NCBI GenBank assembly: GCA_946408345.1
Contig: CAMJRR010000012.1
Coordinates: 1,993 to 65,992, forward strand
Direction of reading: 5' to 3'
DNA length: 64,000 nt
DNA from: an uncultured Bacteroidales bacterium
GTDB lineage: Bacteria; Bacteroidota; Bacteroidia; Bacteroidales; F082
Shown: piece after piece, positions 7,980 through 63,598 of the stretch
Numbering within the stretch: position 1 is the first letter of the stretch
How the letters are laid out: each line of letters starts with the position of its first letter
Made by a program: the position numbers and the translations under genes
Notes under the pieces: model-generated
What the model saw: the letters and a program-made list of their open reading frames with translations, nothing else
Told to the model about the DNA's origin: nothing
Databases searched by the model: none

Positions 7980-8495
7980 ATGATGTACTACAAGATTAGC
8001 AACAAAAAGAGCAAAACCTACAAAAAGTGCCACGAACTTCGCACGGAAGAACTGAAAATGGAAAAAGAAAACGCCAAGCGAGTCCGTGAGATTGTTGGCG
8101 ACGATTGGGACCACTTCTGCGGATGGAGTGGTCAACAGAACATCGACCGGGTTACTTGGTATAACGGTTTTGCCTTCAAAGACCCGTCCAAACTGTCAAA
8201 CGCATGGAAAAAGCACAAAGAGTATCCAGATATTTATGTTCCCAATACAAGGACGAAGGCTGGGAAAAAGATAAAAGAGGAATTGAATAATCTACAACGG
8301 TCGTGTTTCTATAGGGTACTGGAAATATTCGGATTGCAAGTGATTGGCAGGTTCAGCTATCCATATATGGAGATATGCGATAGTGGAGAGATAGTATTGG
8401 CCATGGATGACCAATTCAATTTTGACAATTTCCCCGAGGTCATAGAAATCACCAAGAGAGAAGCCGAAAGGCTGCTGAAAGGAGGGGAGGAATGA
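7980..8495 (+). CDS. hypothetical early protein
   Basis: 171 aa. GGAGG sits 6 nt upstream of the ATG. Confidence 0.65.
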   Translation: MMYYKISNKKSKTYKKCHELRTEELKMEKENAKRVREIVGDDWDHFCGWSGQQNIDRVTWYNGFAFKDPSKLSNAWKKHKEYPDIYVPNTRTKAGKKIKEELNNLQRSCFYRVLEIFGLQVIGRFSYPYMEICDSGEIVLAMDDQFNFDNFPEVIEITKREAERLLKGGEE

Positions 8496-10087
8496 TCCGC
8501 CTTCTCTACATCGACCTCTTTTGTGGTGCTGGTGGCACCACCACGGGCGTTGAAGCTGCCCGCATTGGCGGCAAGAAATGCGCAAAGGTGATTGCCTGCG
8601 TCAACCACGACGCCAACGCCATCCGTAGCCATGCCGCCAACCACCCCGACGCGCTCCACTTCACCGAGGACATCCGCACACTCGACATTGCGCCATTAGC
8701 CGCTCACCTGGCCAAGTGCCGCAAGCTCTATCCAGGTGCAAAGGTGGTGCTGTGGGCTTCGCTCGAATGCACCAACTTCAGCAAGGCCAAAGGTGGCTTG
8801 CCGCGTGATGCCGACAGCCGCACCCTCGCCGAACACCTCTTCCGTTACATCGAAGCCCTCAGCCCCGATTACATCCAAATCGAAAACGTGGAGGAGTTCA
8901 TGAGCTGGGGCGACATGGACGAACACGGCCACCCCATCAGCCGCGACCGTGGCCGCAGCTTCATGGCGTGGGTCAACCATGTGCGCGACTACGGCTATTA
9001 CTTCGACTACCGCATCCTCAATGCCGCCGACTATGGCGCCTACACCAGCCGCAAACGCTTCTTTGCCATCTTCGGCAAGAAAGGTCTGCCCGTGGTGTTC
9101 CCCGTGGCCACCTACGCAAAAAACGGCAACGAGGGACTGGAAATCTTCGGCGACACGATGTATCACAAATGGAAGCCCGTGCTCGAAGTTCTCGACCTTG
9201 ACGACGAAGGCACGAGCATCTTCACCCGCAAGAAACCCTTGTGCGAAAAGACCCTCAAACGCATCTATGCCGGACTGATCAAGTTTGTGGCTCACGGCAA
9301 AGACAATTTCCTCGTGAAGTACAACTCGATGAACCAAAGGGGCGAATATGTCGCGCCTGGCACTGACGAGCCAAGCCCAACCGTGGCCGTCCAGAACCGC
9401 CTTGGATTCGCCAAGGTGCAGTTCCTCAGCAAACACTTCAGCGGCGACCCCGCCAGCAAGAACACCAGCGTAGACCAGCCTGCCGGAACACTCACTTGCA
9501 AGTGCAACCAGTCGTTCATCACGGCCTATTACAGCAACGGCGACAACTGCACCCCGATTGACAGGCCGGCGCCGACCATCCCCGCCCAGGATCGTGTTGC
9601 CTTGGTCACCACGCAGTTCTACCAAAACGAGTATGGCGCAGGCGGCCAACTCTCCAGCCTTGACCAACCCAATCCCACCGTGATGCCAACACCCAAGCAG
9701 AAATTGGTGTCGGTCAAGCAGTACCTCATGAACCCCCAGTTCGACAGTGCCGGTGGCAGCATCGACCAGCCTTGTTTCACCCTCATTGCCCGCATGGATA
9801 AAATGCCGCCCTATCTCGTCACCACCAAGGAGGGTGTCGGCATTGCCATCTTTGAGGACGACTCGCCGATGACCGTCAAGATAAAGGAGTTCATGGCCTT
9901 GTATAACATCGTCGACATCCGTATGCGGATGCTGAAGGTGGACGAACTGAAGCGCATCATGGGTTTCCCGACCGACTATGTGTTAATCGGCACCCAGAGC
10001 GAACAAAAGAAATTCATCGGCAACGCGGTCGAGGTCGGCATGGCCAGGCAGCTTTGCGAAACATTAGCTAATTGTGTGAGAGTATGA
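8492..10087 (+). CDS. DNA (cytosine-5)-methyltransferase
   Basis: 531 aa. Motifs DLFCGAGG (I), LECTNFS (catalytic Cys, IV), IENV (VI) and SRKRFF (VIII). No adjacent endonuclease gene. Confidence 0.85.
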   Translation: MIRLLYIDLFCGAGGTTTGVEAARIGGKKCAKVIACVNHDANAIRSHAANHPDALHFTEDIRTLDIAPLAAHLAKCRKLYPGAKVVLWASLECTNFSKAKGGLPRDADSRTLAEHLFRYIEALSPDYIQIENVEEFMSWGDMDEHGHPISRDRGRSFMAWVNHVRDYGYYFDYRILNAADYGAYTSRKRFFAIFGKKGLPVVFPVATYAKNGNEGLEIFGDTMYHKWKPVLEVLDLDDEGTSIFTRKKPLCEKTLKRIYAGLIKFVAHGKDNFLVKYNSMNQRGEYVAPGTDEPSPTVAVQNRLGFAKVQFLSKHFSGDPASKNTSVDQPAGTLTCKCNQSFITAYYSNGDNCTPIDRPAPTIPAQDRVALVTTQFYQNEYGAGGQLSSLDQPNPTVMPTPKQKLVSVKQYLMNPQFDSAGGSIDQPCFTLIARMDKMPPYLVTTKEGVGIAIFEDDSPMTVKIKEFMALYNIVDIRMRMLKVDELKRIMGFPTDYVLIGTQSEQKKFIGNAVEVGMARQLCETLANCVRV

Positions 10088-10455
10088 ACGATTTTGGTAG
10101 CATATACAGAACGAGAAAGGCATGGAATGACACATGCCTGGCGGCTGGAATCCCTTCTATCAGCACCGACACATCCGCAAGGATCATGGCCGTGCTTTAT
10201 GTTCATGGCAATAACGAGGCGTTTACTTTCAACCAAAAGTTTGTCGCCGATATGGAATACATTCAGAAGCGCTTCCATATTGAAGGAGCAGGAACACCAT
10301 CTTGTGATTTCGTTGACTTATTGATAGAGTATGTGTCTGAACTCGAACAATACGCCCTACAGCATAAAAATGAAAGCAAGGAGGCCGTGTTTTCGGACGG
10401 CAAACCCCAATGGGCGATTGACTTATTCAAGGAAATGTATAACATCAAAATTTAA
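10084..10455 (+). CDS. hypothetical protein, paralog of 34839-35186
   Basis: 123 aa from ATG 10084 (ATGA overlap). It aligns by eye with the 115-aa product of 34839-35186: W.E/D.CL..G.P....T..SARIMA.L...GNNEA...FKEMYNI. Confidence 0.65.
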   Translation: MNDFGSIYRTRKAWNDTCLAAGIPSISTDTSARIMAVLYVHGNNEAFTFNQKFVADMEYIQKRFHIEGAGTPSCDFVDLLIEYVSELEQYALQHKNESKEAVFSDGKPQWAIDLFKEMYNIKI

Positions 10456-10459
10456 TATT

Positions 10460-11344
10460 ATGATATACGGTTATTTAAGAGTTTCATCAGACGATCAAGA
10501 TGTAAACTCGCAAAAACAAGGTGTGGAAAAGTTTGCCGAACTGCGTGGGTGGAAAATTGAAGAATATATTTCCGATGAAGGTATAAGTGGTGGTAAAGAC
10601 CCAGATAAGCGTAAACTCGGCCCGTTGCTAAAGAAACTTAAAAAAGATGATATTGTTATCGCATCTGAAATAAGTCGCCTAGGCCGTGACCTTTACATGG
10701 TGATGGACATCTTGCACTTCTGCATGAAAATGGAATGCAAGATTTACACGGTCAAAGACAACTTTGCGCTTGATGATAATATACAATCGAAGGTACTCGC
10801 TTTTGCATTTGGCCTCGCCGCTGAAATCGAGCGTCAGATGATCCGCCAACGAACCCGAGAAGGTCTGCGTCTTCGTATGAAGATGGGTGTGTTGCTTGGC
10901 AGACCAATCGGAGCAACCAACAGCGAGGAAGCACAGAAGTACGGCGAATGGAAAGACCGTGTGAAGCAAATGGTGGAATGGCAGATGCAGCCACGACAGA
11001 TTGCTGACATTATCGGTTGCGATCGTAACACCGTCAACCGCCTTGTCGCTCGTTGGGGCTTCGGAAAGGAGTGGAAGTACAAAACCGAGTGGGCAAAGAA
11101 CGATAACAAACAGCGTGGCATCACCAGACAGCCAACCTACAAAGACGAACCCTACAAGATTGTGCAACTGAATCGTGAACGTGTCCGCAAGATGATAGAA
11201 GCCGACATGACCATTCCACAGATTGCAGAAGAATTTCCCATGTACACTTACGAGCAGGTATATGACACTATTCTTTGTGACTATGAATTCAACCCCCTGT
11301 ATCGTCATCACGGTCAATTAAAAGTCAAAAAAGTAAAGAAATAA
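10460..11344 (+). CDS. serine recombinase (resolvase/invertase family) with extended C-terminus
   Basis: 294 aa. MIYGYLRVSSDDQ carries the catalytic Ser. Also EISRLGRD and the HTH RQIADIIGCDRNTVNRLV. Confidence 0.85.
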   Translation: MIYGYLRVSSDDQDVNSQKQGVEKFAELRGWKIEEYISDEGISGGKDPDKRKLGPLLKKLKKDDIVIASEISRLGRDLYMVMDILHFCMKMECKIYTVKDNFALDDNIQSKVLAFAFGLAAEIERQMIRQRTREGLRLRMKMGVLLGRPIGATNSEEAQKYGEWKDRVKQMVEWQMQPRQIADIIGCDRNTVNRLVARWGFGKEWKYKTEWAKNDNKQRGITRQPTYKDEPYKIVQLNRERVRKMIEADMTIPQIAEEFPMYTYEQVYDTILCDYEFNPLYRHHGQLKVKKVKK

Positions 11345-11520
11345 TGACAGGCGAGAAAGACAAGATACACGCATTCTTTACGACACTAACCGCCGTGCAT
11401 GTGGTGTGTGGCAAGATGACGAGAAACAAGGCCGAGAAAAAGGCTTACAAGCATCTTGTAGACATGTACGGCGAAGAATACCTTGAAGAATTGTTCAAAG
11501 ACGAAATTGAAACCCAATGA
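11344..11520 (+). CDS. hypothetical small protein (58 aa)
   Basis: Hand-translated MTGEKDKIHAFF...DEIETQ. TAATG and ATGA overlaps with both neighbours. Confidence 0.45.
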   Translation: MTGEKDKIHAFFTTLTAVHVVCGKMTRNKAEKKAYKHLVDMYGEEYLEELFKDEIETQ

Positions 11521-25752: not shown

Positions 25753-25893
25753 CAGTTTAATTTTCGGGGGTCAAAACTAAATTGGCAGTTAAGCCAAAGT
25801 AAAATATCAGTTTAATTTTCAGGGGTTAAAACTAAATTGGCAGTTAAGCCAAAGTAAAATATCAGTTTAATTTTCGGGGGTCAAAATTAAAAT
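25753..25893 (+). repeat. 55-bp tandem repeat, about 2.5 copies
   Basis: CAGTTTAATTTTCGGGGGTCAAAACTAAATTGGCAGTTAAGCCAAAGTAAAATAT starts at 25753, 25808 and 25863 (last copy partial). It is preceded by the hairpin ATTAAGC-N12-GCTTAAT. Confidence 0.85.
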
Positions 25894-25940
25894 CATCGCA
25901 AAAAAAATCGCCCAAATTGTTGCACATTCCAAAAAAGCCG

Positions 25941-25948
25941 TATATTTG
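25941..25948 (+). promoter_or_regulatory. -7 promoter box within the recurring TATATTTGCAGCG motif
   Basis: TATATTTG. The extended motif recurs at 26966 and 41284, with variants at 28937, 42739 and 42927. Confidence 0.55.
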
Positions 25949-25952
25949 CAGC

Positions 25953-26137
25953 GTTCAAACTATTCGCGGCGTAAGATGACAGCCGCACCAACAGCGGCAT
26001 TTTTTATGCCTATACATATCGATGATTAACAGAGCCAACGGCTCCGAGGGACGCGGTAGCAGTAATGCCCGTAAGGTTTGCGAATAGACCTGAACACCCC
26101 TATCGGAGCCTATTTTGTTCAATGTTCAAACTATTCG
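25953..26137 (+). promoter_or_regulatory. structured 5' leader (box / anti-box / box) of ORF 26115-26546
   Basis: The 14-mer GTTCAAACTATTCG occurs at 25953-25966 and 26124-26137. An imperfect complement lies at 26081-26095. A helix pairs 26040-26050 with 26097-26110. A terminator-like hairpin plus T-run lies at 25982-26005. Confidence 0.55.
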
Positions 26138-26546
26138 TATTATGTTCTATCCAACATCGAAGCGTTCCCAGCGTTGGGACGCCATCCAAGAGACCATCGG
26201 CGCGTGGGTCGAAAGCCGCCCCGAGCCTAAAGTGTGGAACAACAGCCTCCGCAGCCACATCTATGTAAGTTCGAAGACCCGTCGCGAGTTGCCCTACTGG
26301 GGCAGCAAGAACCCCCAAAGCACCGAGGCCATCTGCAAGCACTTCAATGAGATCATGCGCTTCGCCGTCAAGAAGGAAGAGGTGCAGCCGCATTCAGGCG
26401 CCGGCAAGCACTTCACCAAACTCATCATCCTTGAGCGCAAGATTGAGGGTTTCGGCACGGCCAAACTCACCGTGGGAGTCAACCAGGAAGGCCGCCTGAT
26501 GAATTATTGCATCACCGTGCCGCCTGCGGAGATGGCGATGGCTTGA
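26115..26546 (+). CDS. hypothetical protein (start 26115 or 26142)
   Basis: 143-aa ORF followed by a terminator. I could not defend any motif. Confidence 0.6.
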   Translation: MFNVQTIRIMFYPTSKRSQRWDAIQETIGAWVESRPEPKVWNNSLRSHIYVSSKTRRELPYWGSKNPQSTEAICKHFNEIMRFAVKKEEVQPHSGAGKHFTKLIILERKIEGFGTAKLTVGVNQEGRLMNYCITVPPAEMAMA

Positions 26547-26847: not shown

Positions 26848-26965
26848 ATGAAAAGTGGAAAATTTTCTATTTTGTAAGTGTACAAATATCAATGATTTAC
26901 AAAGATAATGAAAAATAATTGAAAAAATCTCATTTTTTTTTACTTGCTATGTTGTCAAATATGAC

Positions 26966-26973
26966 TATATTTG
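26966..26973 (+). promoter_or_regulatory. -7 promoter box (TATATTTGCAGCG) for the acidic-protein gene
   Basis: TATATTTG, 58 nt upstream of ATG 27031. Confidence 0.55.
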
Positions 26974-27030
26974 CAGCGTATTTCAATTCAAACAACAAAT
27001 AATTCGATTAAACAAAGAAAGGGTAAAAAA

Positions 27031-34148: not shown

Positions 34149-34221
34149 TGCGGGGTAGAGCAGCGGCCAGCTCACTGGGCTCATATCCCAGAGGTCGGCG
34201 GTTCGAATCCGTCCCCCGCTA
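34149..34221 (+). tRNA. tRNA-Met(CAT), initiator type
   Basis: The cloverleaf fits standard numbering. T1:T72 is mismatched, A11:T24 pairs, and three G:C pairs (29-31/39-41) close the anticodon stem. The loop is CTCATAT and the T loop TTCGAAT. No CCA is encoded. Confidence 0.85.
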
Positions 34222-34296
34222 CAAGGAGAGCGTTTAGATGTCCCGGCAAACTCCTAACCAAACAGGCAACATCAAGTGAGTGAGAATCTCACAAAC

Positions 34297-34401
34297 GGGG
34301 ATGTCGCCCAGAGGCAGGGCATTCCGTGTAAAGGGTAGCAGAACAGAAGCACGGAGTAATAGTTCGCTTGAGAGACGCGGGTTCGAATCCCGCTTTCCCC
34401 A
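34297..34401 (+). ncRNA. aberrant 105-nt tRNA-like element
   Basis: Good D arm (GCCC-AGAGGCA-GGGC) and T arm (GCGGG-TTCGAAT-CCCGC). The acceptor GGGGATG/TTTCCCC is imperfect. The anticodon position holds an 8-bp stem with a 21-nt loop, followed by a 20-nt linker. Confidence 0.45.
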
Positions 34402-39311: not shown

Positions 39312-39770
39312 ATGATCACCATCGACTACCTGAAGAAAACATTGCGCGGTTTCGTACTTTCAGACGGCCAGACCGTTGACACGAACCGTATCCTCGTTGA
39401 CGCGCCCGACATCCAGGAAGGCCTCACGCAACTCTGCCAGAAGAAGGAACCGCCGATAGCCATCCTCTTCGAGGAAGCCTTCCACTATGACGACGACGAC
39501 CGCAACGACGTGCCCTACACCCGATTCGAGCAATCGATCTACGTGATGCGCATGGTGCGAAGCGAGAAAGGCAGCCGCGCCGAGGAACTGAAATGCTTCG
39601 CCGACGTGAAGCGCATCCGCGCCCTGCTGCTCAAAAAGCAATACGAGGGCGACGAGGAACTGAAGGGCTGGAACCGCACCGCCCGCCGCGACTTCGTGAG
39701 CGGAGCCGCCAACTATGTGGGCTGGAAGCTGAAGCTGCCCTTTGTGGAAGAAGAAAGCTGGGAATTGTAG
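39312..39770 (+). CDS. hypothetical neck/tail protein
   Basis: 152-aa ORF. Confidence 0.6.
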   Translation: MITIDYLKKTLRGFVLSDGQTVDTNRILVDAPDIQEGLTQLCQKKEPPIAILFEEAFHYDDDDRNDVPYTRFEQSIYVMRMVRSEKGSRAEELKCFADVKRIRALLLKKQYEGDEELKGWNRTARRDFVSGAANYVGWKLKLPFVEEESWEL

Positions 39771-39773
39771 GCT

Positions 39774-40262
39774 ATGGCACAGAATTACGGCACAAGGGGC
39801 AATGCGGACGAGTTTCGCGTCAACTGGGACCGCTTCGGCGAGATTGTCATAGAGAAATGGCAGAAGAAGCTGCTCGAAAAGGATGTCTATGACACGGGCA
39901 ACCTCTACCGCTCCATCGAGTACGGCTACCGCGCCACCAACGCCTTGAACCAAGTGGTGGGGCGCGGCCACGCCTCTGAGGTGAAGGCGGGCACCGTTCC
40001 CGATGTGTTCACCTTCAAGTTCCCGTTGTACGGAATTTATGTGGAGCGCGGCGTGGGGCGCGGCTACACGCGGGGCAACGGCGGCGACCTGGTGAAGTTC
40101 CGTGGCACGGGACGAGGCAGGGAGAGGCGCACCTGGTACTACCGTATCTTCGCCCACGAGCGGCACCGCCTTGGCGAACTCGTTGCCGAGCAATACGGAC
40201 GCGCCGCGGCCTCGATGATACATACTATTGAGGTGAAGAAGTTGTATTTCAGCGGGGGTTAG
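39774..40262 (+). CDS. HK97 gp10-like head-tail joining / tail completion protein
   Basis: 162 aa. DTGNLYRSIEY...FPLYGIYVERGVGRG resembles the gp10-family pattern. Confidence 0.5.
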   Translation: MAQNYGTRGNADEFRVNWDRFGEIVIEKWQKKLLEKDVYDTGNLYRSIEYGYRATNALNQVVGRGHASEVKAGTVPDVFTFKFPLYGIYVERGVGRGYTRGNGGDLVKFRGTGRGRERRTWYYRIFAHERHRLGELVAEQYGRAAASMIHTIEVKKLYFSGG

Positions 40263-40654: not shown

Positions 40655-41179
40655 ATGGAAGAAGCCCGCGTTATCCCCAATGAAAAAGAACAGGAGTTGC
40701 CTGCCGGAGAGAAGCAGGCAATCGATCCCGCGATTGAGGCCGTGCTGAAAGCCGTCCCCGACGACAAGAAAGAGGAGGCTATCAAGGCCATGGCCGTTAT
40801 CCAGCAGGAAATATTCTCAGGTCCCATCCCGCATCCGCGCCTGTTGGCTGAGTATGAGAAACTGATGCCGGGCAGCATGGACCGCTTTATGAAGATGGCA
40901 GAGCGGCAGCAAGCGCACCGCATGAAACTGGAAGACGCAGCCATCGAATCGCAACTGAAAACGAACAATCGTGGGCAGGTCTTTGGCTTCATACTGGCGG
41001 CGCTTGTCGTGCTTGGAGGAATAGGGATGGCCCTTATGGGAATGCCGTGGTTCGGCGTTCCGCTCACCGTGGGTATGATGGCCGTGCTTGTGGTGCTGTT
41101 CACCAAGGGCAAAATCCACATGGATGCCGACCTGAAAGGTAAGAAAGCGTCTGTCGATACTCAGTCAGCCGAAGAATAG
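40655..41179 (+). CDS. DUF2335-like membrane protein
   Basis: 174 aa from ATG 40655. FSGPIPHPRLLAEYEKLMPGSMDRFMKMAERQQAHR is followed by two TM segments. Confidence 0.6.
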   Translation: MEEARVIPNEKEQELPAGEKQAIDPAIEAVLKAVPDDKKEEAIKAMAVIQQEIFSGPIPHPRLLAEYEKLMPGSMDRFMKMAERQQAHRMKLEDAAIESQLKTNNRGQVFGFILAALVVLGGIGMALMGMPWFGVPLTVGMMAVLVVLFTKGKIHMDADLKGKKASVDTQSAEE

Positions 41180-41283
41180 CTTTGTTACAACCTTGAAAAC
41201 GACAAAGTTCCCACAAACCGGGAGCTTTTCCTTTTTTTTCCGCAATTTTCCCACAAAAATTGTTGCACAATTGAAATAAGCTG

Positions 41284-41291
41284 TATATTTG
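41284..41291 (+). promoter_or_regulatory. -7 promoter box (TATATTTGCAGCG)
   Basis: TATATTTG. Confidence 0.55.
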
Positions 41292-41295
41292 CAGC

Positions 41296-41500
41296 GTCTA
41301 CAACATGATAGTTAGTCTATCTCGCAGGGGCGGCGGAAACAGCCCAAGACATACCGAGGGCTTTTTTTATTGCCCTCTCCGAGTAAGACCTCTGCGGTCG
41401 CCTTTCGTAACATAAAGTCCCCTCGTGGTAGACAGTCATGTTGTAGACAGCGAAACGGCGACCGCTTTCTTGTTGCCCAAACCTAAATGTCTACAACATG
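41296..41500 (+). promoter_or_regulatory. structured ~200-nt 5' leader (box / anti-box / box) occluding start codon 41498
   Basis: GTCTACAACATG occurs at 41296-41307 and 41489-41500, and the second copy contains the ATG. Its exact complement CATGTTGTAGAC lies at 41437-41448. Further helices pair 41394-41407 with 41451-41465 and 41352-41360 with 41419-41430. Confidence 0.6.
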
Positions 41501-41683
41501 CAAAATTCACAGAAGACAGCCGGAGAGACGGCGAAGACGAAGCCCGCATGGGGCGTTGTTTTAATCATCGGGATGGCGGCGGCCTGCACCATCGAAGGCA
41601 GCTTCATCGTAACGGCCATTGCAGTGGCCCTGTTCGGCCTCGGTGCCTGGCTGGGCGGTTACATGAAAGGAGGTGCGGCATGA
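41498..41683 (+). CDS. small two-TM membrane protein
   Basis: 61 aa. WGVVLIIGMAAACTI and IVTAIAVALFGLGAWLGG. Confidence 0.6.
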   Translation: MQNSQKTAGETAKTKPAWGVVLIIGMAAACTIEGSFIVTAIAVALFGLGAWLGGYMKGGAA

Positions 41684-41958
41684 CACAGCAAATGCCCCGC
41701 GCCATGCGCAAGAAAGTCCGCGTCGCCGAAGGCAAGCACCAGGGCGAGCCTACCTGCGACAACTGCGGCCTGATGACCATCGTCACCTCGGGCAGCGGCA
41801 CCCACCGCCACTGCGACCTCATGGGCCTCTACATCCCCGACTGGGAGATGTTCCCAACTTGCAGCCTACACACCTGGCAGAACCGAACCTCACGCGAGCA
41901 GGCACGACACAACTTGCGCTGGGAAACCACCATCGTCGGGGAAGGAGGTGAGAGATGA
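41680..41958 (+). CDS. hypothetical Cys/His-containing small protein
   Basis: 92 aa from ATG 41680. GGAGG-N6-ATGA junction. CDNC...HRHC. Confidence 0.55.
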   Translation: MTQQMPRAMRKKVRVAEGKHQGEPTCDNCGLMTIVTSGSGTHRHCDLMGLYIPDWEMFPTCSLHTWQNRTSREQARHNLRWETTIVGEGGER

Positions 41959-42263
41959 AACTTTTGTCAATCAGAATGCGCGAAATCCAGCCAGGCGATA
42001 TAGACGCTCCGTTGGACTTGAACACGGCCAAAAACGGATTCCATCGCACTTCGGCGTGGAAGTTTGTGGAGGACTATGAAGCAGAGGTTTACGAACATGG
42101 GCGGTTTCGCTTTGAGTCAACGCCCGACAATCCAATCTATGCCGCAGAGGGTTACAGGGGACGCGAAAACGACGGCAAGGTAATGTACTGCCTTGTTCGC
42201 CCGCACCACAAGAAAAACCAGTTCTTTTGCATTTACTTGGATAAGGAAGGAGGTGAGCAATGA
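41955..42263 (+). CDS. hypothetical protein
   Basis: 102 aa. GGAGG-N6-ATGA junction. Confidence 0.6.
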   Translation: MKLLSIRMREIQPGDIDAPLDLNTAKNGFHRTSAWKFVEDYEAEVYEHGRFRFESTPDNPIYAAEGYRGRENDGKVMYCLVRPHHKKNQFFCIYLDKEGGEQ

Positions 42264-42571
42264 GCACACTGAAGATTAGCGACATCCCGACCCTTGCCCG
42301 CTGGACGGAGGTGGGAGTGAACGAGAACGACAACGCCCTCAACGGCTACATCAGCTCTCTGAAAGACAGGATAAGCGAACTTGTATTGCTCGAAGACGAC
42401 AACGCGCCATGCGGCAACCACGAGCCTTCGCCTGAATACGTGGCTCTCAACAAGAGTTGCCGCCTGTTGGCCAACCTGCTCAGTGACCTGAAGAACATCC
42501 GCAGCGAAGTGAAGGCCGCCCGCCTCATCAACGGCACCGGCCTCAAGGTGACGAAAGGAGGTGAGGAATGA
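42260..42571 (+). CDS. hypothetical protein
   Basis: 103 aa. GGAGG-N6-ATGA junction. Confidence 0.6.
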   Translation: MSTLKISDIPTLARWTEVGVNENDNALNGYISSLKDRISELVLLEDDNAPCGNHEPSPEYVALNKSCRLLANLLSDLKNIRSEVKAARLINGTGLKVTKGGEE

Positions 42572-42771
42572 TGACCAAGCTCGAAGTCACCGTCTTCATG
42601 GCCGAATGGGTGGCTAACCTCGAAACGCAGCGCGAAGCCCTTCAGGTGATGATCGACCAAGGCAAGCAGTTCATCACGGAATTGCAGGAAGATTCGGGTT
42701 GCAACATTGCAACCTGTCGACAAACGGAACGGAAATTGTATATTTGCAGCAAGAAAGGACAAAAAAAATGA
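42568..42771 (+). CDS. hypothetical protein
   Basis: 67 aa. GGAGG-N6-ATGA junction. Its 3' end contains the next promoter box. Confidence 0.55.
   Translation: MMTKLEVTVFMAEWVANLETQREALQVMIDQGKQFITELQEDSGCNIATCRQTERKLYICSKKGQKK
42739..42746 (+). promoter_or_regulatory. -7 promoter box, copy 1 of a duplicated promoter-leader
   Basis: The 24-nt TTGTATATTTGCAGCAAGAAAGGA (42736-42759) matches 42924-42947 with 2 mismatches. Confidence 0.5.
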
Positions 42772-47728: not shown

Positions 47729-49809
47729 CTGAAAACGGAAAACTCGACCTGCCCCGCGACTTTTCTCTGAATATGGAACGCACCAACCCGCTCCTTTCGG
47801 GCGAAGGCGATGCCAGCGTCCCGGCTACGCTGCCTTCCTCATCAAGGAACCTGGCAGCTCTCGGTCACCGCGAACGCATCGACCGCGCTGACCGATATAT
47901 AAATAAGGTAGATGCCATTCTTCAGGTCGGTCCCGTACAAAAGCGAGGACAGTTGGTCATCGACACCTTGCACCGTCACGATGGCATAGATGCCTCGTTT
48001 GCCATCGACAGCAGCGACCTCTACGTGAAATCGAAGTCGAAGACGCTGAAAGAGATATTTGCTGATGCCGTTTATGAAGCCGTCAACCATGAGGATTTCG
48101 GCACTCTGGCCGCTGCCATGACTAGGATGCAAGCCATATATGGTGGCAACGATACCTACGACTACACAATCTTCCCAGTGGCCATCGCAAAATACGAGAC
48201 CGAAAGTAACGGCACGAAGACGGAACACTACCAGTACAACAACGAGGATGACGGCTCGCACAACTTGGTCTATCAGGCACGCACCGTGCATGAAGGAGAT
48301 GTCCTTATGAGTGTTCCAGCCGGTTACGGCATTGCGCCCTTCCTAAAGCTGCACCGTTTGATGGCTCGTTTGTTTGAGGCGATGGGCTACACCGTGGTCT
48401 CAAACTGCTTCGCCGAAACGCCTTTTTCCAACCTGACCATCGTGCACAACTGCTCCGACTGCATTTGCAACCCGTCAGTCACCTTATATTATAAGGATAT
48501 GGCGCCGAGTTGCACAATGAGTGAGTTCCTTGAATGGTTGTTGGCCAAGTTCCACGCCCAACCGGTGGTGAACAGCGAGACCAAACAGGTGAAAATCGTA
48601 CTGATGGAAGATATGCTTGGCGCATCAACCGACATCGATATCAGCGGCAAAGTGGAAGGAGAATTCTCCGTCCAGCTCAATCCCACGAAGCGCATAGTGC
48701 TGACACCGACCAACAGCATTGAAGGCACTGAACCTGCCGCCGAGAGCTTCGAGGAACTGGTGGCCAGGTATGGAGGATTTGTGGAAGTGGATGAGGATGG
48801 GTATGATTCTCTTGAAGGCAATAACCCGGTCTGCAACGACTGCCTTGTGCTTCGGAAGACCACAGGACAATTCTACTCCCTCAACTACGACATCTCAACG
48901 AATTTGCAGAAGCGCGAGCTGAAAGGCACCAACCATTTCATCTACGACAGGAAAAACAGTGACGAGACGGAGGATTTCAGCCAGAACGATGTGATGCCGC
49001 TGATGTTGGCTGGTGTAGAGCGCAAGAGAGAGGTTTGCCCTTTCATCGGCGAAAGGCTTCATTACCACACCTCCTACGAAGGCAAGAAAGAAGACGACAA
49101 ACAGGACATCATTGTCGTGCAAAAGGTGTACAATAACCTTTTTGCTAACCCAACCACCGGCACCACGCAGAAATACATCCCTTACGCTGTAGCGCAATCA
49201 GGCTCAAACGGCATGGACCTCGACCTAGGGTTGACCAATTTTATGGCTTACAAGTACTTTTGGCAGGCTTACAATAATCTACTGCTGAACAACCTAACGA
49301 GGCTGAAAGGGAGGGTGGACTACGACTTAGGCGAGTTTCTCGGCATCGACATGAGCCGTCCGAAATTCTGCAACGGGCAAAAGCTAATCCCAGTGTCGGC
49401 AGCGGCAGTCTTGGGCGACCATTTTGGATTGAGCGATACCGAGTTCTTGTTGGTGAAGTCCTTTGTTGACGGCATTTACGATACTGAAATTGAGCCTATA
49501 CAAGGCAATGGGTTAAAGTGGAGTGCGTCCGACAACGTGGAAGATATCGCCCGCGAGCTATATGCCAACGAAATCGCCTTGCCCAATGGTGCTACCCAAT
49601 ATGTAAGTTATGAGTTCTCATTGAATGAAAGCTTATCACCTGGAATGCCGTCATACCTTAACGAAGTCAGAACTGTATCAGTGCAAGCGAGTATTACTAT
49701 TCATTACAGAGAGAGAGAGATAGAAGGCGGTCAAGTCCATTGGACAAACGAATTCGAAATCTTCAACAACCAAACCGTCACCGTCACCTTCACGGCCGTG
49801 CCAGCATAA
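47716..49809 (+). CDS. tail protein (distal tail / baseplate, by position)
   Basis: 697-aa ORF overlapping the tape-measure gene end. Confidence 0.6.
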   Translation: MELVTENGKLDLPRDFSLNMERTNPLLSGEGDASVPATLPSSSRNLAALGHRERIDRADRYINKVDAILQVGPVQKRGQLVIDTLHRHDGIDASFAIDSSDLYVKSKSKTLKEIFADAVYEAVNHEDFGTLAAAMTRMQAIYGGNDTYDYTIFPVAIAKYETESNGTKTEHYQYNNEDDGSHNLVYQARTVHEGDVLMSVPAGYGIAPFLKLHRLMARLFEAMGYTVVSNCFAETPFSNLTIVHNCSDCICNPSVTLYYKDMAPSCTMSEFLEWLLAKFHAQPVVNSETKQVKIVLMEDMLGASTDIDISGKVEGEFSVQLNPTKRIVLTPTNSIEGTEPAAESFEELVARYGGFVEVDEDGYDSLEGNNPVCNDCLVLRKTTGQFYSLNYDISTNLQKRELKGTNHFIYDRKNSDETEDFSQNDVMPLMLAGVERKREVCPFIGERLHYHTSYEGKKEDDKQDIIVVQKVYNNLFANPTTGTTQKYIPYAVAQSGSNGMDLDLGLTNFMAYKYFWQAYNNLLLNNLTRLKGRVDYDLGEFLGIDMSRPKFCNGQKLIPVSAAAVLGDHFGLSDTEFLLVKSFVDGIYDTEIEPIQGNGLKWSASDNVEDIARELYANEIALPNGATQYVSYEFSLNESLSPGMPSYLNEVRTVSVQASITIHYREREIEGGQVHWTNEFEIFNNQTVTVTFTAVPA

Positions 49810-59536: not shown

Positions 59537-60709
59537 TCAACCTTCACGGCTGAATGCCGGTGCCTTCGTGCTGATGGTATCAACCAATCGAGGATCCGCG
59601 TGGTTGGCATAGCGCGTGGTTATGCTCAGGTCGTGGTGGTCGGCGTGCTGCATGACGCTCAGCGCGTCAATGCCGCCTTTAAGCATCTCGTTGATACCAG
59701 TGTCGCGCAATGAATACAGCTGCATCTCGTCAGGCAACCCCAACGCCTCACGCATGTCCTGCCAATCCTTGCGGAATCGGCTGTAGGCCATCTGTTTCTT
59801 CCCTGGCATGTAGCCGTCGGAAAAGAGGTAGTCGCTCTTGTTGGCGTGTCGCGTCATCTTCTCCAGCCTCGTGACGAGTTCCGGAGTGAGTGACGGACTT
59901 CGCCGATAGTGTGTCTTGCTGTCATCCTCGCTTACCTCTATATATCGGTCGGCCAGCATCAGGTCTGACACATGCAGCCGCCAACACTCCTTCGGGCGTA
60001 TCAACGCCGAGAATACCAGTTCGCAAAGGACAATGTAATTCTCGTTGCGCTCCGACCAATACTTGTAGATTTCCTTCCTGACCTCGTGAGGCACCATGAT
60101 ACGCTTCTTGCCTTCCTCGCGCTTAGTCTTGATGGAGGCAAAGGGGTTTTCTTTGCAATAGAATTTCTCTATGGCGTAGGTGAAGAATGCCCGTGCTTGC
60201 TTCAGACGGTTGTTGTAGCTTCGACCATGCAAGCCTTTTTCCTGCACGATGAAGTCCATGAAGTTGGTGGCCATCACGCGGTTGAAGCCCGAAATGGCAA
60301 TCTTGCCATAGTTCTTTTCCACCCATTCCTTAAACACCTTGACGAAAGAGCGGTAATTGATCAAGGTGTCGGGGCGCACGTCGCCCGCTTTGTCGACCAG
60401 GTATTTGTCGAGCACGGCATTGATGGGTGTCAGCTCACGCGAATTGCCGGCACATCCCTCGAAGGGATTCCAGCCCGTGGCCAACTGTGTGTTTAGCCTG
60501 GTGATGACATCGGCGCAATAGGCCTTGAAGTCGGAGACTCTCGAATACTTCTTACGGATGCGGTTCATCTTGATCACCCGTCTTTCCATCGCATTGAAAG
60601 CCGGATTGAACACGCGGTATTCGATGGTCCAGCCATGCGCCGTGTATTTCAGCGATGCCGGAAGGTAGCTGATGAGAGGTTGAGAGTTTTGGGTTTTGAC
60701 GAGACACAT
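59537..60709 (-). CDS. int: tyrosine-type site-specific integrase
   Basis: 390 aa. ALIRPKE (Arg), YSLRDTG and HADHHDLSITTRY (His...Tyr). It is adjacent to attR and the tRNA. Confidence 0.85.
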   Translation of the reverse strand: MCLVKTQNSQPLISYLPASLKYTAHGWTIEYRVFNPAFNAMERRVIKMNRIRKKYSRVSDFKAYCADVITRLNTQLATGWNPFEGCAGNSRELTPINAVLDKYLVDKAGDVRPDTLINYRSFVKVFKEWVEKNYGKIAISGFNRVMATNFMDFIVQEKGLHGRSYNNRLKQARAFFTYAIEKFYCKENPFASIKTKREEGKKRIMVPHEVRKEIYKYWSERNENYIVLCELVFSALIRPKECWRLHVSDLMLADRYIEVSEDDSKTHYRRSPSLTPELVTRLEKMTRHANKSDYLFSDGYMPGKKQMAYSRFRKDWQDMREALGLPDEMQLYSLRDTGINEMLKGGIDALSVMQHADHHDLSITTRYANHADPRLVDTISTKAPAFSREG

Positions 60710-60834: not shown

Positions 60835-60863
60835 GTGGGACGTACTGGACTCGAACCAGTGAC
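60835..60863. repeat. attR core (within the tRNA-Val 3' end)
   Basis: Identical to 2185-2213. Confidence 0.9.
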
Positions 60864-60910
60864 CTCTGCCGTGTGAAGGCAGCGCTCTAAACCAACTGGG
60901 CTAACGTCCC
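60836..60910 (-). tRNA. tRNA-Val (anticodon CAC)
   Basis: 75-nt cloverleaf on the reverse strand. Acceptor GGGACGT/ACGTCCC, anticodon arm CTGCC-TTCACAC-GGCAG and T loop TTCGAGT. Confidence 0.9.
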
Positions 60911-60947
60911 TCCGTTGATACAAAAGACGCTTTGCAGCGTCTTTAAG

Positions 60948-61022
60948 TGGGGCGAACAAGGATCGAACTTGTGACCTCATGCCTGTCAAGCATGCGCTCT
61001 AAACCAACTGAGCTACCGTCCC
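60948..61022 (-). tRNA. tRNA-Val (anticodon GAC)
   Basis: 75 nt. Anticodon arm CATGC-TTGACAG-GCATG and T loop TTCGATC. There is one A4:C69 acceptor mismatch. Confidence 0.8.
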
Positions 61023-61116
61023 ATTTAACTGCGTTGAACCTCTTGGTTTGCAGGTGCAAAAATACGGCTTTTTTGGAAACCGACAAGAAAAATTCTTTCT
61101 TTTTTTGAAAAAATTA

Positions 61117-61124
61117 TATCTTTG
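61117..61124 (+). promoter_or_regulatory. -7 promoter box (TATCTTTG) for the DPP-IV gene
   Basis: 21 nt upstream of ATG 61145. Confidence 0.5.
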
Positions 61125-61144
61125 TGGAATCAAATCTATTCGTT

Positions 61145-63364
61145 ATGAAGTTTAAATACCTATTAGTCAGCTTGTTCCTTGTTTTTGGAACGCTTTCGGC
61201 TACGGCCCAAGAGAAGAAAAACTTTGATTTGGAAGACCTGTATATGCGTCCGACGTTCTATGCCAAGAGCGTCAGAGGTATGAATTCGATGAAGGATGGA
61301 AAGACTTACGCCTCCTTCGAGAAAGGTCAACTCAACATTTACAACTACAAGACAGGAAAATTGGAGAAGACCTTGTTCGGCATCGCTGACCTTACCCTGC
61401 ATCCTGACTCATTGCCTATCGGAATGCAAGACTATGAGTTGAGTGCCAATGAAGATAAGATGTTATGCGCTACCGAAATGGAGAGCATCTATCGCCATTC
61501 GTATCACGCTACCTATTATGTCTATGATTTCAACACGAAGACCTTGCAACCGCTTTCAGAGAACGGCAAGCAGCGCCTCGCCACGTTCTCGCCCGATGCA
61601 ACAAAGGTTGCTTTCATGCGCGACAATAACTTGTTCATCAAGGACCTGAAGACAGGGGAGGAGAAGCAATTCACCAAAGATGGCCTCTACAACCATATCA
61701 TCAACGGTGCACCCGACTGGGTCTATGAGGAGGAATTCAGTTTCTCTCAGGGTTTCTATTGGTCACCCGACAGCAAGAAGATCGCTTTCATGAAGTTTGA
61801 CGAGAGCAAGGTGCGTGAGTTCCAGATGGAGGAGTTTGAAGGCCTCTATCCCGACTGGTATAGCTTCAAATATCCTAAGGCTGGCGAGGACAACTCCATC
61901 GTCGAGATTTATGTATACGACCTCGAAAGCGGCAAGACGGTGAAGATGGACACGGGCAAGGAAACCGACATTTATCTGCCCCGCATCGCTTGGACGAAGG
62001 ATGCCAATGTGCTGGCCATCCAACGCCTCAACCGTCATCAGAACCATCTTGAAATCCTGGCCGCCGATGCAAGCACGGGCAAGAGTCGCGTGTTTTACGA
62101 TGAGACCAACGAATATTACATCGACATCACCGATGATTGGCATTTCCTTGAGGATGGCAAGCGTTTCCTTATGACATCAGAGAGAAGTGGCTACAACCAC
62201 ATCTACCTTTGCAACCTCGATGGCACGGAAGCAAAACAACTCACCAACGGCCCTTGGGACGTGACCAGCGTTTATGGCTTCGACGGCAAGGAAGTGTATT
62301 TTCAAGCTGCAAAGAATACGCCTGTTGACCGCCAGATTTATGCTGTCAACCTGAAAGGCAAGATGCGCGAGGTGATTGGTCGCGAAGGCACCAACCAAGC
62401 CACTTTCAGCAATGACTTCAGCTACCTTATTAATATAAACAGCACCATCAACCAACCGCGCCAATTCGAGCTTTACACCAATAAGGGCAAGTTGGTGCGT
62501 GTGTTGGAAGACAACCATGAGTTTGCCGAGAAGCTGAAGACCTTCAACCTTGGCGAGAAGAAACTGATGAAGATCAGTGACCCAGCTTTCACTTTGCCTG
62601 ATGGTACCCAAGTCGATGTTGACGCTTGGCAAATCCTGCCTCCCGACTTTGATCCTTCGAAGAAATACCCCGTGTTGATCTATGTGTACGGTGGTCCTGG
62701 CCATCAGACGGTCAGCAACTCTTGGGCCAACAGCGACTATTGGTGGATGCAACTGCTGGCTCAGCATGGCATCATCAGCGTTTCGATTAACAACCGTGGT
62801 AGCGGCGCTCAGGGTGAGGTCTTCAAGAAGATGACCTACCTGCAACTGGGCAAGTATGAGACTGAGGACATGATTACTCTTGCCAAGTACATGGCCAAGC
62901 AGCCTTACGTGGATGGAAGCAGAATTGGCATCTATGGTTGGAGTTACGGCGGCTTTATGGCAGCCAATGGTATCACCAAGGGCGCCGACGTCATCAGCAC
63001 GGCTGTTTCTGTGGCTCCCGTGACCAACTGGCGTTATTATGACAATGTCTATACCGAGCGTTTTATGCGTACTCCTCAAGAGAATCCTGATGGATATGAC
63101 CTTAATTCGCCCGTTCACAATACGGAGATGATTAAAGGTAACTACTTGCTTTGCCATGGCAGTGGTGATGACAATGTCCACTATCAGAACGCTATGGAAC
63201 TCATTAAAGCTATGATTTCCAATGGTAAGCAGTTCGACCTGATGATTTATCCCAATAAGAACCACGGCATCTACGGTGGATATGAATATGGCAGTGGAGA
63301 ATGTCGTATGCACCTCTTCAACAAGATTGATGACTTCTTGTTTGAGCATTTGCTAGGAGAATAA
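61145..63364 (+). CDS. dipeptidyl-peptidase IV (S9B serine peptidase), secreted
   Basis: 739 aa from ATG 61145. MKFKYLLVSLFLVFGTLSATAQ signal peptide. Catalytic triad context GWSYGGF, GSGDDNVH and KNHGI. Confidence 0.9.
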   Translation: MKFKYLLVSLFLVFGTLSATAQEKKNFDLEDLYMRPTFYAKSVRGMNSMKDGKTYASFEKGQLNIYNYKTGKLEKTLFGIADLTLHPDSLPIGMQDYELSANEDKMLCATEMESIYRHSYHATYYVYDFNTKTLQPLSENGKQRLATFSPDATKVAFMRDNNLFIKDLKTGEEKQFTKDGLYNHIINGAPDWVYEEEFSFSQGFYWSPDSKKIAFMKFDESKVREFQMEEFEGLYPDWYSFKYPKAGEDNSIVEIYVYDLESGKTVKMDTGKETDIYLPRIAWTKDANVLAIQRLNRHQNHLEILAADASTGKSRVFYDETNEYYIDITDDWHFLEDGKRFLMTSERSGYNHIYLCNLDGTEAKQLTNGPWDVTSVYGFDGKEVYFQAAKNTPVDRQIYAVNLKGKMREVIGREGTNQATFSNDFSYLININSTINQPRQFELYTNKGKLVRVLEDNHEFAEKLKTFNLGEKKLMKISDPAFTLPDGTQVDVDAWQILPPDFDPSKKYPVLIYVYGGPGHQTVSNSWANSDYWWMQLLAQHGIISVSINNRGSGAQGEVFKKMTYLQLGKYETEDMITLAKYMAKQPYVDGSRIGIYGWSYGGFMAANGITKGADVISTAVSVAPVTNWRYYDNVYTERFMRTPQENPDGYDLNSPVHNTEMIKGNYLLCHGSGDDNVHYQNAMELIKAMISNGKQFDLMIYPNKNHGIYGGYEYGSGECRMHLFNKIDDFLFEHLLGE

Positions 63365-63427: not shown

Positions 63428-63598
63428 TAAAATGTAACCGTCTTCTAGTCAAATCAAAAACACAAATGATGATGTGTTGGTGCTGTGTTTCGTCATGAAA
63501 CCAAATATCGTTTCTGGACGGATATTTGCAACCCAGTTGCAAAACTTTTGCCGCATTTTTGCATCGTGATTTAAAGAAATAAATAAAAACTGCAAAAT

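Follow-up and report, generated by a model that had tools for sequence, protein, structure and literature searches.

How is a small gene read when its start codon lies inside a 12-nucleotide (nt) word that also stands near the head of the same transcript, with an exact complement of that word between the two copies? The question is raised by leader B, at positions 41284-41500 of a 64-kilobase (kb) stretch of DNA from an uncultured gut Bacteroidales bacterium (contig CAMJRR010000012.1). We call this whole stretch the window; coordinates are positions in it unless another sequence is named, and the three sites of leader B are referred to as box 1, the anti-box and box 2. An earlier note, made from the letters of this DNA, had proposed that the anti-box either occludes the start codon of a 61-amino-acid (aa) open reading frame (ORF) or is itself titrated by the transcript's 5′ end. 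We find that the three sites covary across at least 11 further loci, that the anti-box belongs to a fold conserved among them, and that the layout matches the immI region of phage P1. We consider it likely, with a probability of roughly 0.7, that leader B is an antisense-RNA control cassette of the c4/CI type belonging to a temperate Bacteroidales phage.

Three sites that covary

The sites are listed here with their equivalents in the established plans of phages P1 (a1, a′, a2) and P4 (seqA, seqB, seqC), to which we return below.

41296-41308, + strand: box 1, GTCTACAACATGA, equivalent of a1 or seqA, at or near the 5′ end of the transcript
41436-41449, + strand: anti-box, TCATGTTGTAGACA, equivalent of a′ or seqB, complementary to and covarying with both boxes
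41488-41500, + strand: box 2, TGTCTACAACATG, equivalent of a2 or seqC, with the start codon (41498-41500) inside it

Two + strand copies of the 12-mer GTCTACAACATG occur, one at 41296-41307 and one at 41489-41500; 41437-41448 holds its reverse complement. Once flanking bases are counted, 41296-41308 is complementary to 41436-41448, and 41437-41449 to 41488-41500, at 13/13 positions each. Box 2 ends in the ATG of the 61-aa ORF at 41498-41683. Both box copies, the anti-box, the start codon and the −7 promoter box (41284-41291) therefore stand where the earlier note had placed them. Neither strand of the 64 kb holds a further exact copy of GTCTACAACATG; the chance expectation for an exact 12-mer on both strands is about 0.008 (128,000/4^12, our own arithmetic). 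The sole copy with one mismatch, at 11452-11463 on the − strand, was considered as a target in trans and set aside, as it lies antisense within an ORF and looks like chance.

Relatives were collected by protein-anchored and pattern scans of IMG/VR and GTDB genomes; the first two IMG/VR patterns were too loose and returned mostly noise, and matches were filtered by blastn. The scans yielded at least 11 further loci with 75-92% identity in the leader, on IMG/VR contigs (L001, L002, L207, L236, L298, L299, L300 and L301) and in metagenome-assembled genomes (MAGs) of Candidatus Limimorpha sp. (L297), of a member of the Bacteroidia (L296, RUG14786) and of a member of the Bacteroidales from roe deer (L281). 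Searches of GenBank phages by blastn, with the leader and with the 12 kb around it, gave no match, and a scan of JGI metagenomes with the pattern TGCGGTCGCC...CCCCTCGTGGT returned 39 matches, all of them chance occurrences in unrelated GC-rich DNA. The window and 11 relatives, 12 sequences in all, were aligned with MAFFT and given a consensus fold with RNAalifold.

The scaffold of the leader is nearly invariant among these loci and the boxes differ, with 10 box sets in the 12 sequences: GTCTACAACATG, GCTAACAAGATG, GCTAAACAAGATG, GCTATCGAGATG, GCTATCCGATG, GCTATACAGAT, GTCTTACAGATG, GCTTAACAGAT, GTCTATCAGATG and GCTTTACAGATG. Each locus carries the same set at box 1, anti-box and box 2, even down to length differences of 1-2 nt, and the ATG of the relatives lies inside box 2 or at most 3 nt after it. 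Out of 11 positions, cognate combinations form 10.9 standard pairs (box 1 with anti-box) and 10.8 (box 2 with anti-box), as against 7.2 for non-cognate ones, and the observed total was reached in 0/20000 permutations. At least two types of standard pair occur at 10 or 11 of the 12 positions of each box helix. RNAalifold recovered the helix between box 1 and anti-box unaided, with both-sided changes at 7 pairs there and at 11 in the whole fold. The earlier note had held that a lack of covariation would tell against its idea; what we see is triple covariation across 10 box sets, some of the pairs being G·U.

The G·U pairs bear on the molecule involved. Box copies within a locus differ in five instances, three of which are A-to-G or C-to-U changes kept as G·U, and all 12 sequences share a U·G pair at alignment columns 30:152. 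Because these positions stay paired as G·U, the boxes appear to act as + strand RNA and not as DNA sites for protein binding or recombination. The alignment supports an interaction of the three boxes as RNA, as a co-evolving triple.

The core RNA and the 5′ leader

The anti-box falls within a core of 72 nt, whose parts are these.

41394-41465, + strand: core RNA, candidate c4-like antisense RNA, 72 nt (69-74 nt in 11 relatives)
41394-41407, + strand: 5′ strand of closing stem P1, paired with 41451-41465
41408-41413, + strand: 5′ strand of helix P2 (TAACAT), a fourth, partial box copy, paired with the 5′ half of the anti-box (ATGTTG, 41438-41443)
41417-41433, + strand: hairpin H1 (GTCCCC-TCGT-GGTAGAC), b′-like
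41444-41450, + strand: 3′ half of the anti-box (TAGACAG), left unpaired between P2 and stem P1 and proposed as a seed or toehold
41451-41465, + strand: 3′ strand of closing stem P1, paired with 41394-41407
41466-41474, + strand: U-rich tail TTTCTTGTT

The core at 41394-41465 folds with z-scores of −4.2 to −4.3, and the values against shuffles span −4.2 to −5.6 overall. Its closing stem, which the earlier note had proposed as a scaffold helix, is real: across 15 pairs, 98.8% of cells are paired, and two pairs show compensatory changes (TTTCG/CGAAA versus TTACG/CGTAA; C-G versus U-A). Helix P2, which the earlier note had overlooked, is a helix of 5-6 base pairs (bp) in 10/10 distinct cores, is part of the minimum free energy (MFE) fold of 9/10 cores and of the centroid fold of the window, and comes in five covarying versions (TAACAT/ATGTTG, AAGAT/ATCTT, TGAGA/TCTCG, TCGAT/ATCGG and TAGAT/ATCTG); only 22% of non-cognate combinations attain 5 bp. 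Hairpin H1 is predicted in all cores, with inner pairs that are invariant or nearly so; pair 31:44 is CG, UG or UA. The 3′ half of the anti-box, TAGACAG, is unpaired in an asymmetric loop in the centroid fold of the window and in the MFE of 9/10 homologues, and these folds make it a plausible seed or toehold.

Directly after the GC-rich stem P1 comes the U-rich tail, conserved in the relatives (columns 81-90), which by its sequence is possibly a second terminator, T2, or the 3′ end of the core RNA. Box 2 lies 23 nt beyond the stem. A covariance model, R1, built from 11 cores scores 83-104 bits on 12/12 sequences with this kind of core (hereafter type B) and matched nothing else; it gave no match to leader A, a second cassette in the window, to the c4-2 RNA of a further locus, L003, or to c4 of phage P1. 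The anti-box is part of a discrete structured RNA of 72 nt, one that probably works in trans as well.

Upstream of the core lie the following parts.

41204-41238, + strand: intrinsic terminator of the upstream gene for a DUF2335 membrane protein, with a 9-bp stem at 41204-41228 followed by TCCTTTTTTT
41260-41291, + strand: Bacteroidetes-type promoter, with the −33 element TTG at 41260-41262 and the −7 box TATATTTG at 41284-41291
41307-41321, + strand: leader hairpin Ha (GATAG-TTAGT-CTATC), overlapping the 3′ end of box 1
41317-41331, + strand: b1-like segment CTATCTCGCAGGGGC, complementary to H1
41335-41368, + strand: T1, a terminator-like hairpin (GGAAAC-AGCCC...GGGCT) with a U7 run, between box 1 and core
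41356-41377, + strand: alternative hairpin GAGGGC-T-rich-GCCCTC, present in the MFE fold and sharing GGGC with the 3′ arm of T1

Leader B would be a separate transcription unit, since the terminator at 41204-41228 closes the upstream gene. TAnnTTTG is the known consensus of the Bacteroidetes sigma factor sigma-ABfr (PMC7366714). All of the aligned sequences (12/12) contain TAT(A/C)TTTG. The promoter word GTATATTTGCA occurs eight times in the window with at most one mismatch, against 0.9 expected, and leader A (at 25940) has the same promoter. Other matches to the word lie at 26965-26975, 42738-42748, 61055-61065 (− strand) and 63520-63530; those at 26965 and 42738 directly precede ORFs (ATG at 27031 and 42768, respectively) and are without a box and anti-box system. 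As box 1 begins 4 nt past the −7 motif, it should lie at or near the 5′ end of the transcript.

The segment 41296-41368 (70-75 nt in relatives) folds alike in each homologue into a single-stranded box 1, hairpin Ha and T1, and by this predicted fold the 5′ RNA is built like a canonical small RNA (sRNA) with a 5′ seed. Hairpin Ha is predicted in 10/10 homologues folded, and its arms covary (GATAG/CTATC, GATGAG/CTCATC, GATGGT/ACCATC and GATGA/TCATC). In the consensus fold the b1-like segment pairs with H1 (columns 27-41 with 140-155); covariation there is weak because the segment is almost invariant (column pair 28:154 is CG, UA or UG). T1 is present in 12/12 aligned sequences (pairs between columns 42-55 and 71-87, none of them broken), is flanked by an A-tract and a run of U6-7, and forms in the predicted short-RNA fold of each homologue. 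A simple terminator scanner did not flag T1 in the window, because the loop there exceeds 8 nt; in L001, the stem is interrupted by an interior loop. We infer from these folds that T1 functions as a terminator, and since this terminator-like hairpin and its U7 run separate box 1 from the core, a free 5′ RNA of 70-75 nt is likely.

The consensus fold also bears on two further helices of the earlier note. The competing hairpin at 41356-41377 exists in the window, but its conservation is partial, with 6 bp in the window, L297, L300, L236 and L296 and 4 bp in the relatives of the L001 type. A second scaffold helix, between 41352-41360 and 41419-41430, does not appear in that fold: RNAalifold pairs CCCCTCGTGG instead with CTCGCAGGGG of the leader (CACGCAGGGG in most relatives). 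Complementarity between the 5′ leader and the core reaches beyond the anti-box: 27-30 nt of the core, namely H1 and the anti-box, face box 1, Ha (its 3′ arm) and CACGCAGGGGC, which reads CTCGCAGGGGC in the window, with bulges over about 30 nt. The predicted duplex of leader and core has −42 to −48 kcal/mol in 11/11 sequences, as against −20 to −30 kcal/mol for core and box 2.

A possible circuit and its alternatives

How might these elements work together? Under the antisense reading, the host-type promoter (−7 box at 41284-41291) would give a transcript that begins with box 1. Many transcripts would probably end at T1 (41335-41368), leaving an RNA of 70-75 nt whose free 5′ seed is box 1. Read-through would produce the 72-nt core (41394-41465), from which a free core RNA would be released, its 13-nt anti-box lying half under P2 and half exposed as a seed. 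The seed would nucleate on box 2 (41488-41500), P2 would open, and a duplex of 12-14 bp over the start of ORF1 would block ribosome binding. Competing for the anti-box, the 5′ leader would serve either as a decoy, relieving repression, or as a feedback site of the core RNA on its own transcript. We hold it likely that the core is an antisense RNA of this kind; as to the sign of regulation, repression has about an even chance of being right.

The consequences for the operon follow from the way in which its genes are joined.

41498-41683, + strand: ORF1, 61 aa, two hydrophobic segments, 4-nt overlap with ORF2 (ATGA)
41519-41532, + strand: early-ORF hairpin GCCG-GAGAGA-CGGC in codons 8-12 of ORF1 (RNAalifold columns 263-266 with 273-276)
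41680-42771, + strand: ORF2-ORF5 (92, 102, 103 and 67 aa), each start overlapping the preceding stop and each preceded by GGAGG

The starts at 41680 (ATGA; stop 41683) and 41955 (stop 41958) each follow GGAGGTG and are coupled by sequence, and by ORF coordinates alone the start at 42260 overlaps the stop at 42263 and that at 42568 the stop at 42571. The operon that the earlier note had described, coupled through Shine-Dalgarno (SD) sequences and headed by a 61-aa ORF with two transmembrane segments, is thus borne out at the junctions checked. Because ORF2-ORF5 start inside the stop codons of their predecessors, a block at ORF1 should silence the whole operon.

Taken alone, the region of box 2 shows no significant structure (z = 0.24), and nothing but the anti-box is predicted to occlude the start codon; without the 5′ leader, the helix of anti-box and box 2 is the predicted fold. 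The alternative posed at the outset, that the anti-box occludes the start codon or is itself titrated by the 5′ end, puts the possible logic fairly. The idea of RNA pairing in the earlier note was largely right; what it missed were the known architecture, T1, the leader complementarity of about 27-30 nt and the fourth, partial box.

Several results weigh against the antisense reading or against its likeness to c4. In the full-length MFE fold the 5′ leader takes up the anti-box and box 2 stays largely open, so that the read-through transcript may be ON by default and repression may need an excess of free core RNA; copies of box 1 per transcript are at least as many as anti-boxes. These energies are only indicative, because pairing of the loop closed by stem P1 with an outside strand is a pseudoknot: RNAfold and cofold form the relevant pairings only by opening the stem, and the comparison of ON and OFF energies is not decisive. 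Outside the boxes and P2, covariation is thin because the scaffold is so conserved, and 3/500 shuffles reach the observed score. Searched with cmscan at E<=10, the region 41150-41750 has no match to the Rfam c4 clan (CL00128: C4 RF01695, c4-2 RF02944 and c4-a1b1 RF03163), and eight homologous loci searched at E<=0.5 have none except the c4-2 of L003. The Infernal/Rfam search that the earlier note had suggested as a check left leader B unmatched by any Rfam 15 model and matched leader A to c4-2; leader A (46.1 bits) and c4 of phage P1 (68.8 bits) served as positive controls. The kinship to c4 is one of architecture only, and homology is not demonstrable. Moreover, there is no second downstream target and no b2-like sequence near box 2, and no antirepressor or other recognisable function was found downstream with Pfam, PHROGs and PADLOC.

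Of the alternatives, activation of the IsrK type fares best. In Gifsy-1, read-through of the IsrK terminator gives an inactive isrK-orf45-anrP mRNA with coupled orf45 and anrP, and the short IsrK RNA activates this mRNA in trans (PMC4825925, Hershko-Shalev et al. 2016). Applied to leader B, pairing of anti-box and box 2 would hold the mRNA inactive in cis and an abundant 5′ RNA ending at T1, with box 1 as its seed, would bind the anti-box in trans and switch ORF1 on, which would make the 5′ RNA the regulator and the core a cis-inhibitory element. The 5′ RNA folds like a canonical sRNA (seed, hairpin, terminator) in all relatives, its pairing with the core (27-30 bp) far exceeds in energy that of core and box 2, and the Rfam isrK model matches the a1b1 and terminator region of phage P1. 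Yet the 5′ leader in cis already occupies the anti-box in the full-length fold, where box 2 is not predicted to be occluded, and the isrK model does not match leader B. We regard activation of this kind as unlikely.

Quite improbable, in our estimate, is a main effect on transcription, and not on translation, after the manner of P4 CI, in which the core would pair with nascent box 1 and box 2 and provoke premature termination at T1, at T2 or by Rho. One antisense segment with an upstream and a downstream site is indeed the plan of seqA, seqB and seqC (PMC4825925), the core is flanked by two terminator-like elements, and an invariant GGGGC...GCCC upstream of T1 could, from its sequence, be an anti-terminator that core binding removes. 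Against this, T1 forms by default in the predicted nascent leader of every relative, so that no helper seems needed, and the exact placement of box 2 over the start codon in all relatives speaks for control of translation; since the putative anti-terminator does not vary, covariation says nothing about it.

Could the boxes act as DNA, either as recombinase sites bounding an invertible segment that flips a terminator or as operators of a co-evolving DNA-binding protein? Invertible switches are common in Bacteroidales, the window encodes a serine recombinase (10331-11341), the boxes form 13-bp inverted repeats at spacings of 127 bp and 38 bp, and identical repeats would covary too. However, the segment between the boxes has the same orientation in 12/12 assembled sequences, and DNA would be mismatched at three of the five copy differences and at the invariant U·G, all of which pair in RNA. 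With its bulges, the complementarity runs on for about 30 nt, no conserved DNA-binding protein accompanies the cassette, whose cargo genes vary by locus, and a structured c4-2 RNA takes the same position in L003. We judge a DNA element very improbable. An insertion with target-site duplication, raised in the earlier note and making the 193-bp interval between the identical 12-nt direct copies a small mobile element, has a negligible chance, since the interval is kept in 11/11 further loci although the repeats differ, no empty site is seen, and duplication explains neither the internal complementary copy nor the partial fourth one.

The prophage, its cassettes and known systems

In the window, L299 and L003, ORF1 encodes a membrane protein of 61-63 aa; in 8/10 readable type-B relatives it encodes a soluble 'RDCH' protein. 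The resemblance to holin or toxin control that the earlier note had seen in a gated 61-aa membrane protein is without support; that protein is not the conserved first gene. The conserved leader module reaches about 45 nt into ORF1, and the first 13 or so codons (MQNSQKTAGETAK) are kept where the remaining ORF1 is unrelated. L298 and L299 retain the hairpin at 41519-41532 by a compensatory change (GCUG/CAGC), and the hairpin may be an RNA element of the leader module.

Family scans covered 17 proteins of the cassette and its neighbours and two ORFs downstream of leader A. Pfam, PHROGs and PADLOC gave no match above threshold for the operon proteins of the window or the relatives, in scans that did not include a remote-homology search; the sole family match was DUF2335 (phrog_3996) on the upstream neighbour, the rest being sub-threshold noise. 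Strong SD sequences are unusual among Bacteroidetes genes. Here, the small ORFs end in ...GG(A/E)x because the GGAGG of the next ORF is embedded in their last codons (41660-42771 in the window; L001, L002, L003, L207, L236 and others). The overlapping run closes with a short conserved protein in 8/10 type-B loci read, with the sequence MT(R/K/H)(L/T/M)EI(I/T)T(R/K)L(C/A)E... in seven loci and MMTKLEVTVF in the window.

The window holds a prophage, whose end is marked by the gene of a tyrosine integrase (59540-60709, − strand); beside it come two genes for tRNA-Val (60835-60910 and 60947-61022, − strand) and then the host gene of a DPP-IV/S9 peptidase (61124-63361). The prophage also has terminase, portal-region and tape-measure ORFs, and the relatives occur in Bacteroidales MAG and IMG/VR contigs. 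The cassette lies between tail-region genes and a 1500-aa tape-measure gene. Two proteins of 152 and 162 aa (39312-40262) are encoded upstream of the cassette in the window and downstream of it, right before the tape-measure gene, in L001 (3567-4507), L297, L301, L207 and L236. The slot of the cassette thus varies within the tail module, and the cassette behaves as a mobile, moron-like unit. Elsewhere, the prophage contains a tRNA-Met (34149-34222), an Rfam tRNA-like match at 34297-34401 (105 nt, 40 bits; not called by ARAGORN) that may represent a tRNA carrying an insertion, or else a degenerate copy, and in its early region a C-5 cytosine DNA methylase (8492-10084) and the serine recombinase, or resolvase, with helix-turn-helix domains (10331-11341).

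Leader A (25940-26145) is an Rfam c4-2 RNA (RF02944, 26040-26112, 46.1 bits). Its promoter is GTATATTTGCAGCG, and its box, TTCAAACTATTCG, stands at 25955 and a second time at 26124, there 5 nt before an ATG (26142). At about 25983-26006 lies a terminator-like hairpin with a T-run; the bases complementary to the box are in a hairpin loop of the RNA, which has a U-rich tail. Since leader A shares the design of leader B, the prophage holds two cassettes with different addresses. In L003, a c4-2 RNA (49.7 bits) occupies the exact position of the type-B RNA, before a homologous pair of ORF1 and ORF2, and because of this exchange in place the c4-2 and type-B RNAs are interchangeable modules. A 55-nt tandem repeat (2.5 copies, 94% identical, 25753-25891) lies directly upstream of the leader A promoter, and L003 carries, at 1624-1793 and about 1 kb upstream of its c4-2 cassette, an RT-3 RNA (RF03068, 71.7 bits), a motif named for its association with reverse transcriptase.

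Comparison with phage P1 and with the IsrK locus (PMC4825925) indicates that the plan of box 1, anti-box and box 2 is an established one, that of a1b1, a′b′ and a2b2 or of seqA, seqB and seqC. The annotation of phage P1 (NC_005856) gives, in its own coordinates:

48195-48223: promoter P1c4
48255-48261: a1
48269-48276: b1
48343-48419: c4 RNA, 77 nt
48423-48429: a2
48452-48459: b2
48470-48691: icd, 73 aa
from 48688: ant1, with a 4-nt overlap with icd

Rfam models match P1 immI as C4 (68.8 bits), c4-a1b1 (51 bits) and isrK (35 bits, E = 6e-6). The isrK match spans the a1b1 hairpins and an intrinsic terminator, so phage P1, too, has a terminator between its upstream sites and c4. The two loci agree in order: constitutive promoter, upstream sites, terminator hairpin with U-run, an RNA of 72-77 nt, downstream target and small ORF. 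Their upstream complementary sites lie 30-50 nt into the transcript. The RNA has the 70-80 nt, long closing stem and unpaired antisense segment of the class (72 nt and 15 bp here); according to the Rfam alignment, a′ is located in the 3′ junction beside the closing stem, as is the anti-box. Complementary sites lie up- and downstream on the same transcript, with all three covarying in leader B. The downstream target covers the initiation region of a small first ORF (73 aa in phage P1 and 61 aa in leader B), which overlaps the following gene by 4 nt and is coupled to it. Both belong to temperate phages, and specificity varies among relatives, just as it differs between P1 and P7 in their heteroimmunity.

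The differences are equally clear. c4 has two hairpins, whereas the core of leader B has one hairpin and the self-pairing P2. Downstream, phage P1 uses a2 and b2, of 7-8 nt each, with b2 on the SD sequence; leader B has one contiguous site of 12-14 nt on the start codon. First-gene mRNAs in Bacteroidota lack SD sequences. The two antisense segments of c4 (a′, b′) each have two partners, while the H1 or b′-like segment here has an upstream partner only. The host belongs to the Bacteroidota, the cassette sits in the tail-gene region, and its cargo includes no antirepressor recognisable with Pfam, PHROGs and PADLOC, a remote-homology search not being part of the comparison. P1 c4 and P4 CI RNA are cut from the primary transcript by RNase P and act in trans. 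A CCA-like tail follows c4; the 3′ flank of the core is U-rich (TTTCTTGTT) and has no such tail.

Weinberg et al. 2017 (PMC5737381) describe the c4-2 motif as probably a distant homologue of c4. The c4-2 RNA of leader A resembles leader B in belonging to the same prophage and in having a near-identical promoter and the same layout, including the U-rich tail and the box at the ATG. It differs in its 10-bp outer stem, 4-bp inner stem and two hairpins, with the antisense bases in the loop of hairpin 2. In type B these bases lie in a junction half-covered by P2, and neither model finds the other. With somewhat less than even odds for the following as a whole, the core may be a new, independently evolved RNA class and not a diverged c4, filling the c4 niche in Bacteroidales prophages as a 'programmable' toehold switch. 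Its fixed scaffold would then hold a hypervariable address of 12-14 nt four times (5′ sRNA seed, partial lid, anti-box and start-codon site), in a three-RNA circuit of sponge, antisense and target, and c4-2 and type B would be two mutually orthogonal cassettes, each gating its own small-ORF operon in the structural gene region.

The principle of P1 c4, P4 CI and IsrK would extend to phages of Bacteroidota on a scaffold invisible to current Rfam models, and because none of these models detects it, model-based scans undercount this regulatory class. Ten addresses on one scaffold make up a natural series of compensatory mutations; P1 and P7 immunity are set apart by changes of this kind. To our knowledge, the function of the upstream a1b1 copy is unresolved even in phage P1; leader B, in which the upstream complementarity far exceeds the downstream one in length, makes its role accessible to a test. 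Gut commensals of the Bacteroidales are without classical SD-based control, and short, orthogonal RNA switches that target the start codon and are native to Bacteroidales could serve gene control in them.

Among the remaining relatives by design, IsrK (RF01394) shares with the proposed organisation of leader B a short 5′ RNA that stops at a terminator, an mRNA arising by read-through, and a small, coupled first ORF; the short RNA is complementary to a stretch further downstream in the long one. T1 with its U6-7 run is found in 12/12 sequences, but neither the scanner nor the isrK model matches it. In IsrK, the short RNA activates and the long RNA is intrinsically inactive, in contrast to the full-length fold of the window with its largely open start codon. 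P4 CI acts by premature transcription termination and, as compared by description, its targets are not on a start codon, a difference from leader B. The authors of the IsrK study liken that locus to P4, where CI RNA pairs with upstream seqA and downstream seqC, and describe a processed downstream RNA, STnc1160, complementary to IsrK and likened to P4 CI (PMC4825925); STnc1160 would by this token be the counterpart of c4. With one antisense segment, one upstream and one downstream site, P4 CI is the closest match to the single-box logic of leader B (PMC4825925). On this comparison, leader B would be a new structural variant of the c4/CI/IsrK kind, a known architecture and not a new principle.

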